In this document: piece after piece, positions 1,099 to 57,265 of the stretch
Numbering within the stretch: the first letter of the stretch is position 1
How the letters are laid out: each line of letters opens with the position of its first letter
Source of the DNA: Eledone cirrhosa
Taxonomy: Eukaryota
Assembly: GCA_964016885.1 (NCBI GenBank)
Contig: OZ024743.1
Span: 157,852,001 to 157,916,000 of the forward strand
Direction of reading: 5' to 3'
Length of the DNA stretch: 64,000 bases
Position numbers and translations under genes: made by a program
Notes under the pieces: generated by a model
What the model saw: only the letters and a program-made list of their open reading frames with translations
Told to the model about the DNA's origin: nothing
Database searches by the model: none

Positions 1099-1684
1099 GG
1101 TATGTCAAATTAATACTATAGAACAACAACTGTATCATACACACCCTATATATTTCCAGGAGTACTTAGTACCTGTGGGGATATTGATCTCTTTTTATAT
1201 ATTCTCCGTTATGTAGAGAACAAATCCTTTGTTTTATTTAGCTGCTATTTTTAGTGGCGTGATAGTCAACACGTCTATGTTTACTTCCGCTTCTACTAGG
1301 GGCTGGTTCATGCACAGGTCAAGTCTACGGCCTCATTCGATCCCGTGCTAGCTGGCAGGTGGCAATATATGTTGCCGTTCCTGGGACTTTTGTCCTAGGT
1401 AGGGAAAATGCTTTCTGAAGATCTGAACATTTCCATTGGAAGTCCCTAGGATTTCCAATCTTTTGTGAAGTGAAACCGTCGGTAAAAGGAATAGGTGAAT
1501 ATTTAAATTATATTTTTTTATTTATTTTAAAAAATTGTTTGAATTTGCTTGCTCCGCTTATCTCAATTTTTATAGTTCTGGTATGTCAAATTAATACCAT
1601 AGAACAACCACTGTATCATAGACACCCTATATATTTCCAAGGGTACTTAGTACCTGTCGGGATATTGATCTCCTTTTATATATA
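1099..1684 (+). mobile_element. Terminally redundant non-coding HHR element (retrozyme-like), monomer ~481 nt
   Basis: ~100 bp direct repeat 1099-1200 vs 1580-1684 (ggtatgtcaaattaatac...gatattgatctc), one HHR between them, no credible ORF, ends in a TA run. Confidence 0.75.
1411..1488 (+). ncRNA. Type I hammerhead ribozyme motif, intact core
   Basis: CUUU-CUGAAGA(1415-1421)-U-[stem II with inner hairpin AUUGGAAGUCC/GGAUUUCCAAU]-U-GAAAC-CGUCG-GUA(1482-1484)-AAAG; stems I, II and III all pair. Confidence 0.85.
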
Positions 1685-1694
1685 GTCCAGAAAT

Positions 1695-1745
1695 AGCCGT
1701 CCGACGGCTTGAACTCTGCCGTCGGGGTCATACTTTTTCCTATTT
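1695..1745 (+). other. 5'-truncated 3' half of an HHR element (stem III plus GUC)
   Basis: ACGGC...GCCGUC-GGGG then ...cttttccta and (TA)n; same family as 4522-4582. Confidence 0.5.
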
Positions 1746-1879
1746 TTTTATATATATATATATATATATATCGGACAAACGGGACGCCGTATGGCGGACC
1801 GTTTTGCCGAGGAAGAATCTGTGTCTAGAGGAAACATGCTAGACATATTACCCATTTTTACATGAAGTATATCCGTAGC

Positions 1880-2200
1880 ATTCTACACATCTGAAGGCGG
1901 ATAACATTCCCTGACACTGTGATTCAGCAAGCCAAACTCCTACGCTCATGCAGAAGATTTTGTTAAGATGTCAATAGCGTATACCAAAGTGGCTTCTGTA
2001 TGGTGACCACTGTCCGGAAAAGCGCGCTATTTGGAGAGGAAAGAAGTGATTGAAGGACTTCCTAAAAGAATCTGTAAAGCACCTCAATATTGTGGTTGTC
2101 TCTTGATAGCTACTTGCCTAAACTGACATACTTGGTGCTGTAGATTAAGAATGGTTTCCAAATATCTGGCCAAAAATTAGTACTGAGAAGAAGCATTCGT
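1880..2200 (+). pseudogene. Degraded RTE-clade LINE 3' ORF fragment
   Basis: Broken frames give RIPKWLLYG and LKDFLKESVK, matching the RTE RIPKxLLYGEL...RFKD motif. Confidence 0.55.
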
Positions 2201-2985
2201 GCCATGAGGTTAAAGCTACCAATACCCGAACTTTTACCCATGTATATGTCTCCTATATGTAGGGTAGCAATTCTGGTCTATTCACAGACCAACATTGGAA
2301 AGGAGAAAGTTGGAATTCTAGTATTACATTCATTTCGTAGTTGTAGCAATCACCTTATACATAAGTATTATTACAAGCATTTGCATCGAGATCTTTTTAA
2401 TGATGTCTACTGAGGAAACTGAAAAAAGTTAACAATATGAAATTTCTTTAAATATTCAAAGATTTTATACAAATCACCAATGATTTTATCTATTAGAATG
2501 GGATTGATATCATTAGAGATGTTTGTCTTCTATATCAAACCAGTACATACTGACTGCCTTGCTGGGTAATATTGTTTCAATATATCATTACGCAATCTTA
2601 ATTTCATCTGTTTAAACCTTTTTTGGGTAATTTACTGTTATCCTGCTTACTCTAATGCAACTATTTTGTTTACAAAAGATTCAAATACGAATTACTGGTG
2701 CGAATTAGAAACAATAAGGTTTTAAGGGATATATCTATGCACTACTGGACCTGTAATCTTTTCCTTGTGTCTCAGAACTAAATTATAACAGCAATAAAAT
2801 GTTAAGTGTAGACATGTGTTTCATTTCAATCTTCAAATTATTTAATTCTTTGTCGTTCAAGACTGTTGGCGCTGCCTGGCCGAATGGTTAAAAGATTCGC
2901 TTTGCAATCATTAGGCCCTGGGTATGATAACACTGCGAGGCATCTTTGGCATGCATTATTTACCATAGCTTTATAGCCCTTGCCA

Positions 2986-55464: not shown

Positions 55465-55830
55465 ACAATTACAGATCCGTCAGCATATAAAACATCGCGG
55501 ACTATAGCTATGAACGTCTTTGTTTTAGTTTCAAAACGCCATGCATTCTGAATTCCTGTAATGCATGGATAATTGCAACTGAGAAGTATATCGGGAACAA
55601 AGCTGGCTCAAGTATATACCCCTGATTATCACCAATCTCCAGAGCAATCCTTTTCGACAGAACAGCATTAGAACTGGATGAAACCTTCAAATCAGTGTCT
55701 AACTGGACAACTTGGTAGGGCACCCTAACCTTTCCAGAATTTTTTATGCAGTGCATTTCGATTCATCGTGTTAAAAGCTTTCGTTAGGTCAACAAATACT
55801 TTTCTTGCAGCTATCTGACACCGAAGGAAT
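55465..55830 (-). pseudogene. RTE-clade RT fragment
   Basis: VFVDLTKAFNT, QGYILEPALF, VLYADG. Confidence 0.75.
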
Positions 55831-56017
55831 ATATGAACTGCTTCTATCTATAAATACGAACACACACACACACACACACACACACACACACACACACACA
55901 CACACACACACACACACACACACACACACACACACACACACACACCTCGTTTATATTATATATATATATAATAGAAAAAACGAGGAAGTTTCGTTTACAT
56001 TTGAAAAATATTTATTG

Positions 56018-56120
56018 CGTATCGACCTGTTACGCACGTTGCGCAGAGGATTGGCTCAAGGTGACCCATGGGATCTATGGACCCGACTCCGTATCGATCT
56101 GCTCCTCAGAATGGTGATGC
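56018..56120 (-). ncRNA. Degenerate type I HHR-like motif in a short insert (55970-56162) between TA runs
   Basis: CUGAGGA-GCAGA...UCUGC-GCAAC(for GAAAC)-GUGC-GUA; stem I only partly paired. Confidence 0.5.
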
Positions 56121-56724
56121 GACAAAAGATATATTTTTGTTGTGGTATGTGGGCCGAGAAGATATATATATAGGCATCAGCCCTTTTGTGTGTGTGTGTA
56201 GGGGGCGTGTATGTGCATTTTGGTGTACATAGTGGTGCGGCGATGCAGGTGTGTATTCACCCATATTCATGTGCGTGTTTACGTGAACGCGCGAGCAATT
56301 AGGGATTCGTGTGTGTGTGTGTGTGTGTGTGTGTGTGCGCGCGCGTGTGGACGCGTTTTGGAATGTGCATTGGTCAGTCAAAGACTTGTTTTGGTGTAAA
56401 CAGGAAGCAGCGGTTTATGGGGTGTGTCTGCATGGACGACCCGATACTAGTTTATAGTGACGGTAAAGACATTTCATGTTTTTGTCAAAGAATTTAAAAA
56501 AAGGTTGTGGATAGTATTTGTAAGATGTAGAAATTCAACAACATAGACAGACAAACGTAGACGTACAGTCGCGCACAGACATGTATACATATCCATACGC
56601 CCAAACTCAGGAGCCCGCGCACGCATATAAGTGTTTACATCCACACACGTCCATAGATCACACATATATACACACACCCACTCTCATATATATATATATA
56701 CACATATATATATATTTATTAACA

Positions 56725-57265
56725 TAACAGATTAAAGTTTAAGCAAAGAATCGCTGCTTTCACCCTTAACGGGGTCTTCTGAAAGGGTGAAAGCAGCGAT
56801 TCTTTGCTTAAACTAATCTGTTATTTTAATAAATATTTGCTCTATGGTTCTTATATATTTGATATATATTTTTCCTTATCTAGCCCACTTTGGATTTTAG
56901 TCTTCAAATTTATTATTATTACTACTGGGTAACCTGGAATTTGGTATTTCTCTTCACAAATAATATTGCGAAACGGTTATATCAAAGACCGTCTGGGTGA
57001 TGGTAGTTACCACAATATTGGTTTGTATTTATTTTTCTTAATTTGTTCTTAAATTGAGTCCAGCAAACCCTATTGTCTGTAGTTAGTATTTTTTTCACCT
57101 TAGCGATTTTGGTCCATTACGATTTGAACACACACATATATATATGTCTGAGTTCGTTTTTTCCTTTTTTGTTCAGTTATATACGGCTCGGAAAAGCCTT
57201 TTTTCTAGAACTAATTTACTGTAATGAGACTATTTTGAGTTTCTAACTCAATACAAGCTTTTGAG
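56725..57265. mobile_element. Foldback insert in (TA)n, same family as 9495-9690, with longer tail
   Basis: Same arms and tail start; tail contains GAAAC-GGU...ACC-GUC (56970-56993). Confidence 0.8.

Follow-up and report, generated by a model that had tools for sequence, protein, structure and literature searches.

What are the short non-coding inserts that sit beside (TA)n runs in a 64,000-nucleotide stretch of the Eledone cirrhosa genome (GenBank assembly GCA_964016885.1, contig OZ024743.1, positions 157,852,001 to 157,916,000; hereafter the window), and what kind of enzyme put them there? A preliminary description of the window reported hammerhead ribozyme (HHR) motifs in about 12 such inserts and proposed many families of non-autonomous ribozyme RNAs, mobilised by Penelope-like elements (PLEs) that target (TA)n. 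When these inserts are traced through the genome, it appears, with a probability that we put at roughly 85%, that they comprise truncated PLE 3' ends together with protein-free HHR units of 0.4-1 kb, all ending in (TA)n, with the same Penelope-type enzymes as the likely agents of insertion for both.

The assembly comprises 3.0 Gb in 1796 contigs, four of them very large, and the window lies on a contig of 379 Mb. Letters A to O denote the repeat families to which the listed window sites were traced (Table 1), and labels such as L011 or L113 denote further loci of the same genome. A wider set of loci (1.03 Mb of this genome) was a biased choice, while a systematic sample consisted of 40 evenly spaced 10-kb stretches (400 kb), 39 of them from the four largest contigs. 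The strict scan for type I HHRs used a CUGANGA core, and its controls were shuffled sequence and seven other control cores.

Hammerhead motifs in the window

All 16 of the HHR coordinates first reported, and all three half-motifs, fall in multi-copy families with a type I HHR, in which three stems surround a CUGANGA...GAAA...UH core, families O and D varying at position 4. The strict scan passes five motifs of the window (1415, 23154, 23473, 26293 and 46582), and in 30 shuffled windows it gave no match in 28 and one match in each of the other two. Among 112 Rfam matches in the window, mostly microsatellite miRNA noise, only one is an HHR (RF00163, 9287-9331), and at 29.1 bits it lies under the 34-bit cut-off.

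The ribozyme is intact in only some of the window copies, the others being variants or individually damaged members of their families. The HHR at 20911 has the U3-A8 core, a variant already known from parts of PMC4209133 and PMC3088659 and not a sign of decay. Copy-specific defects were found at 4411 (C3U), 8551/9049 (A6G), 24296 (stem I broken) and 56018 (GAAA damaged); the HHRs at 23896/24101 have an A.C mismatch at 10.1-11.1, and the family D core at 4642 deviates from CUGANGA in five of the six copies seen. The half-motifs at 1703, 4538 and 56970 hold up as 5' truncations within stem/loop II. The likeness drawn earlier to the minimal motifs of PLEs does not: the HHRs are mostly Hydra-type, with U.U at 10.1-11.1, U17 cut sites and often a long stem II, and U.U pairs and U17 are described for Hydra HHRs in sections of PMC8557442.

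In the related families K and L, an alignment of eight related sequences from four subfamilies shows covariation: compensatory change affects six of 25 pairs and is spread over all three stems. The paired cells amount to 97.5% (34-45% in slid controls), and none of 500 shuffles attained the covariation score. Judged from their sequences, the window inserts are real hammerhead-ribozyme repeats ending in (TA)n runs.

Families joined to Penelope-like reading frames

The main autonomous PLE family is represented by a 3542-nt tandem (L113/L114), whose copies are 99.6-99.8% identical and encode a 719-aa open reading frame (ORF) with reverse transcriptase (RT) and GIY-YIG domains. Its motifs (RWR, DKT, CxCX5C, CxxC, CxH and a C-terminal endonuclease, with no CCHH) fit the Hydra definition, and a "Neptune" label for this family was therefore dropped. 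The endonuclease-region Hydra motifs can also be read in family O and, in part, in B, D and I.

Continuity with such reading frames identifies six families (B, C, D, E, I and O) as what appear to be 5'-truncated 3' ends of autonomous Hydra-type PLEs. Family C is the L113/L114-type PLE: its 3' untranslated region (UTR) ends in an HHR whose core is U3-A8 in 38 of the 39 counted, the 3' ends seen as half-motifs at 1703 and 4538 belong to it, and an ORF ends 0.5-2.5 kb upstream in 30 of 107 marker matches, most such loci having been picked for their ORFs. The ORF ends 222 nt upstream of family B in L113, 1275 nt upstream of E in L066, 1530 nt upstream of I in L127 and 949-951 nt upstream of O in L132 and L143, the UTR of O being common to four loci. 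For family D the evidence is one locus, L124, in which it is continuous with a GIY-YIG ORF (865 nt); four more loci are truncated and uninformative.

Family O was overlooked in the preliminary description, and occupies 41780-41900 as well as the three sites of Table 1. Throughout this common family the core is U4A (for example at L011 125-190), with CAG in 17 of 21 pattern matches and CTG in none. A term search for this core in the accessible text of PMC3088659 gave no match.

The two PLE GIY-YIG relics reported earlier are both present, one Hydra-type and one Neptune-type. The protein of the former matches the main PLE proteins of the genome, and a genome search with it returned 32,669 first-look candidates, with open frames up to 829 aa; first-look counts, here and below, are rough and are not copy numbers. 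A homologue search with the 114-aa relic found no match, nor did Pfam for either the relic or the intact ORF. The Neptune-type relic was not picked up by the Hydra profile. At its 3' end (21376-21430, minus strand) lies a second core-like CUGACGA with a short stem, without GAAA.

Ribozyme units without reading frames

Families A, G, H, K, L and N are, on the evidence of their unit structure, true non-autonomous elements. Each reads from its own 3' end into the start of its own unit, the units being 422-1005 nt long. In family A, a 481-nt unit followed by short TA is repeated in partial tandem, with a period of 481-489 nt in five loci and an upstream ORF in none of 42 marker matches. The period is 592-595 nt in G and 422-432 nt in H (two loci each), about 677 nt in L (at least five loci), and 1005 nt in K and 519 nt in N (one locus each). 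The longest ATG ORF in these six units is 20-71 aa, tblastn to the PLE protein found no match, and a pattern search for the B box of a tRNA-derived short interspersed element (SINE) found none in any of the six. The features of non-autonomous PLEs seen among them are the missing ORF, partial tandems resembling pseudo-long terminal repeats (pLTRs), 5' truncation, an inverted arm and a tail, with only one 3' end seen for K. Tandem units that each contain a complete type I HHR, as in retrozymes, occur as dimers in A, G, H and K, in a minority of copies. Family K, whose HHR has a 99-nt branched stem II, is young (96-97% identity), and N is very young (96-99%).

Clustering, and the question whether each family extends into an ORF, therefore divide the material: not every family is a PLE end, with six ORF-less and six joined to ORFs. 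The many non-autonomous ribozyme families first proposed are upheld in A, G, H, K, L and N, while B, C (twice), D, E, I and O, about half of the inserts, are autonomous 3' ends instead. Families F, J and M were assigned to neither group. An ORF link of N in L178 was rejected, the ORF being a separate relic beyond an inverted segment, and a link of F in L018 was rejected for the same fault.

An identical 20-nt motif near the unit start (A unit 40-59, N unit 51-70; about 1240-1260 in the window) is confined to these two otherwise unrelated families, with 41 matches, and is possibly a promoter or protein-binding element. At another locus (L126 6596-8906), at least seven identical same-strand HHRs with a 310-nt period, plus an inverted copy, form a classic retrozyme array, the cluster of which is present in three loci.

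Insertion ends and a proposed mechanism

In most families the 3' end is fixed at two positions, 55-160 nt from each other, and inverted 5' arms occur as well; the spacing is about 56 nt in H, 83 in C, 86 in N, 105 in A and 157 in G. At the two modal positions of families A, C, G, H and N, (TA)n directly follows 119 of the 122 copy ends, and both positions coincide with short TA-like element sequence. Of 13 inverted arms in family A, 12 end at the nearer (short) site. At the 5' side, 184 junctions divide into 76 with an inverted arm, 29 with direct TA and 79 with neither, so that TA is found at 29 of the 108 non-inverted junctions (27%, against a background of 4%).

In vitro, a PLE tail marks two internal sites at which copying starts, and both strands of the target are cut and extended (PMC11167929, in part). 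We take the two fixed 3' ends with inverted arms to be this tail signature. The link to PLEs in the preliminary description is sustained.

Insertions do not, as a rule, start at the HHR cut, which was the case for 3 of 41 in family A and for 0 of 134 in six other families (3 of 175). Points of 5' truncation or inversion crowd 26-47 nt upstream of the cut in families C (19 of 43) and O (12 of 32), in stem/loop II, and this crowding accounts for the half-motifs. It may reflect pausing near stem II, to which subfamily divergence may contribute.

We infer (TA)n targeting, trans-mobilisation and ribozyme cleavage from these sequences, and suggest the following scheme. The endonuclease would nick (TA)n, which is identical on both strands, and each strand would prime reverse transcription at one of the two internal start sites, at short TA-like sequences in the RNA. 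The outcome would be a long-ended arm, often joined to a short-ended inverted arm, and later copies would accumulate in TA runs that earlier insertions had left behind. Tandem copies would give rise to the transcripts of the ORF-less units, which would use the enzyme in trans. It seems that uncut or more-than-unit RNA usually serves as the template, and the ribozyme, kept by selection in master copies, would probably trim or circularise multimeric transcripts.

Several observations weigh against this reading. The ORF linkage of B, D, E and I comes from one locus each. Several of the HHRs, when folded in isolation, do no better than shuffles (z of -0.7 for A, -0.05 for H, +0.09 for E and +0.4 for O, disregarding an L180 fold that missed the ribozyme). 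Of the 184 5' junctions, 79 have neither TA nor an inverted arm, some of these being alignment breaks. Because the elements themselves end in short TA, each run may in part derive from the element. Finally, a search of about 1 Mb and three autonomous UTRs found no autonomous partner with a shared 3' end for A, G, H, K, L or N, and the clade that moves them, whether Hydra or Neptune, is therefore itself conjectural.

Alternative explanations

The ORF-less families could be classic retrozymes that move through self-cleaved circular RNA, with reverse transcription rounding the circle to give more-than-unit copies. Precedent exists in portions of PMC7229834, and as to the enzyme the idea is compatible with insertion by Penelope-type enzymes. 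The conserved HHR with its covariation in K and L, the copies exceeding one unit and the 310-nt array of at least seven same-strand units all speak for it. We nevertheless consider it rather unlikely: most copies are scattered and 5'-truncated, do not exceed about 1.5 units and have their ends at start sites of the PLE type, and many cut triplets are of the NUU type, a weaker type for hammerhead cleavage. In the reconstituted PLE, moreover, the main template is uncut RNA (PMC11167929).

Alternatively, (TA)n might not be targeted at all: slippage at the TA-rich end of the element could have produced a tail that expanded later. The coincidence of both 3' ends with short TA-like element sequence speaks for this. 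It is improbable given the TA enrichment at direct 5' junctions (29 of 108 against 4%), the chaining of unrelated families through single TA runs (4282-4770, 8469-9690 and 22844-24660) and the preference for (TA)n reported for Hydra PLEs in the relevant part of PMC8557442. Hardly any weight can be given to the view that every family is merely the 3' end (pLTR) of an autonomous PLE with no independent elements, for while it holds for six families and most solo HHRs are read as truncated PLEs in passages of PMC4209133, no ORF fits the fixed recurring periods of A, G, H, K, L and N, K and N being represented by one tandem locus each.

Abundance in the genome

The 400-kb sample contains 18 intact-core CUGANGA HHRs, including one match that looks spurious (L135 8016) and was retained; ten block shuffles with both cores allowed gave 0-3. 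The seven other control cores gave 0-1 sample matches each. Apart from these, the UUGANAA core was excluded from the density estimate: nine of its ten sample matches belong to one 32-nt satellite (L155 7671-8118) that mimics a U3-A8 hammerhead and is a trap for descriptor scans. A run of (TA)5 or longer lies within 300 nt downstream of 17 of the 18 motifs, against a background of 0.177 (binomial P of 2e-12, same-family copies not being independent), and the reported association with (TA)n is thereby borne out against this background. The density that had seemed striking is ordinary for this genome, with five motifs in 64 kb and 18 in 400 kb (P=0.16).

By extrapolation, the four large contigs would carry about 75,000 intact-core motifs, a figure that rises to about 135,000 (80,000-210,000) for the whole assembly if the remainder is alike. 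Published loads, in the sections available, are about 5,000 in a mussel and up to 120,000 in axolotl (PMC7229834), and about 9,000 minimal HHR motifs in Xenopus (PMC4209133). The biased 1.03-Mb set contains 131 motifs in 37 clusters, 15 of which occur in at least two loci. First-look candidates number 3015 for A, 4237 for L, 1738 for K, 2643 for M, 1923 for N, 1464 for J, 2570 for G, 2067 for D and 172 for E.

Relation to known elements

PLE hammerheads, (TA)n targeting and retrozymes are established biology, of which the present case is a further instance, in a genome with an unusual abundance of such elements. The preliminary description knew of no account from a cephalopod-type genome, but a cephalopod example has been published: the supplement of PMC8557442 (Craig et al. 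2021) has an entry for Hydra-1_Obim of Octopus bimaculoides, in which (TA)n is given as the target and an HHR is recorded. The autonomous elements found here resemble the Hydra clade, as parts of that paper define it, in the C-terminal GIY-YIG, the RWK/RWR, DKT, CxCX5C, CxxC and CxH motifs, the lack of CCHH and the (TA)n preference, and also in inverted 5'-truncated copies and a type I HHR at the 3' end that often has U.U at 10.1-11.1, with U or A at the cut site. The same sections give one octopus family, "a small number" of families and no non-autonomous Hydra partners, whereas the families here are many: their UTRs reach 1.5 kb, their tails measure 55-160 nt against the 30-40 bp described, stem II extends to about 100 nt, and the cores include U3-A8 and U4A.

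The ORF-less units resemble animal non-LTR retrozymes (PMC7229834; Li et al. 2026, 10.64898/2026.07.22.740005; both in part), which are low in GC, do not code for protein, measure a few hundred bases and carry a single type I HHR; they occur in tandem or solo and are proposed to be PLE-derived and PLE-mobilised. Those are defined as tandem arrays, mostly in vertebrates, and linked to PLEs by co-occurrence and pLTR similarity; the units described here are dispersed and (TA)n-ended, and display inverted arms along with the two-end tail of PLEs. Non-autonomous Chlamys PLEs such as MRC1 (PMC8557442, in part) are likewise ORF-less with pLTR-like partial tandems, but they are green algal, mostly lack an HHR and generally resemble an autonomous family at the 3' end, a partner not found here. 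In Poseidon PAc (Frangieh et al. 2024), as described in portions of PMC11167929, two internal start sites likewise define the tail, both strands are cleaved and extended, and HHR cleavage is dispensable for insertion; its tail is shorter, its target AT-rich rather than (TA)n and its start site non-homologous to the target, whereas both ends here lie at short TA-like sequence. The dependence of retrozymes on PLEs is assumed by both Cervera and de la Pena (2020, PMC7229834) and Li et al., and genome-wide solo HHRs were read as truncated PLEs by Cervera (2014, PMC4209133), in the parts available.

What is new is the scale, the non-autonomous partners with a tail signature and the family-wide U4A core. 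Our literature search, which covered few subscription papers and few Repbase or Dfam entries, found no description of non-autonomous HHR elements in cephalopods, and the families may be catalogued under other names. The elements also bear on cephalopod repeat annotation: a curated octopus annotation of 2026 lists 893 recently active unclassified SINE families (PMC13282606), yet its main text does not mention ribozymes, nor does that of a second octopus repeat paper. A broader proposition, for which we see about even odds, is that Octopus-type genomes hold some 10^5 HHRs, among the densest loads reported, a large share of them in unrecognised, dispersed, (TA)n-targeted and protein-free "Penelope SINEs", and that the two-start-site tail and inverted arms of these directly prove trans-mobilisation of animal retrozymes by Hydra-type PLE enzymes; some of the hundreds of "unclassified SINE" families in octopus annotations may then belong here, and the U4A core of family O may be an active natural variant. 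The movement of animal retrozymes has so far been deduced from co-occurrence and sequence similarity. One genome here combines young non-coding families (96-99% identity) with intact PLE ORFs that are almost identical to one another; the target is defined and both start sites are mapped, so that trans-mobilisation and the role of the ribozyme become testable in vitro.

Other repeats of the window

Upstream of family F, AT-rich sequence extends for more than 1 kb and contains neither an ORF nor a unit junction. The features of the window are collected in Table 1.

Table 1. Ribozyme families, PLE relics and a SINE-like repeat in the window
Feature	Position	Strand	Description
Family A	1099..1683	+	Putative non-autonomous 481-nt unit and partial upstream copy; HHR core 1415, predicted cut after 1484
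Family C fragment	1685..1748	+	Predicted 3' end of autonomous Hydra-type PLE, truncated in stem II
Family B inverted pair	4282..4478		Left arm with tail, right arm short; HHR 4411-4449 (+)
Family C fragment	4523..4582	-	Predicted 3' end of autonomous Hydra-type PLE
Family D	4600..4770	-	Long-stem-II HHR, variant core
Hydra-type PLE relic	6622..8470	+	Linker and GIY-YIG 6683-7302, then 3' UTR; aligns with E-family locus L066
Family O fragment	8469..8512	+	Short end
Family E inverted pair	8531..9152		HHRs 8630 (-), 9053 (+); old family, 70-81% identity
Family F	9163..9476	+	Rfam-like HHR 9287-9331, short inverted arm 9163-9221
Family O inverted pair	9497..9690		Family core CAGAAGA (U4A)
Family G inverted pair	20756..21240		U3-A8 core 20916 (+); 592-595-nt unit; 157-nt tail
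Neptune-type PLE relic	21376..22825	-	CX4CxxC linker, two Cys between GIY and YIG; decayed minimal HHR about 21930-21990
Family H inverted and tandem	22844..23716		HHRs 23154 (-), 23473 (+); 422-432-nt unit
Family I inverted pair	23762..24205		HHRs 23949 (-), 24107 (+)
Family J	24240..24660		HHR 24367 (-), inverted arm 24476-24607
Family K	26212..26594	+	5'-truncated copy of 1005-nt ORF-less unit; HHR 26288-26415
Family L	46147..46879	+	677-nt ORF-less unit and 57-nt partial copy; HHR 46578-46700; related to K
Family M	55971..56686	-	Family HHR intact; window copy damaged in GAAA
Family O inverted pair, second copy	56716..56919		
Family N	56933..57265	+	5'-truncated copy, half HHR at 56970, of 519-nt ORF-less unit
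SINE-like repeat, about 190 nt	2987-3108, 4771-5181, 9706-9805, 12916-13098, 38414-38600, 39330-39504, 42124-42250, 45816-46130		

A non-LTR retrotransposon, which we take to be R2/NeSL-like, occupies 28844-32429 on the minus strand, with a partial 3' copy at 33078-33506; it has RVT_1 and zf-RVT domains in frames of 368, 127, 466 and 263 aa. A second RT-like element (48960-51803, minus strand) is broken and has a Cys-rich N-terminal frame. The SINE-like repeat is abundant and unrelated to the HHR families, which it often adjoins.

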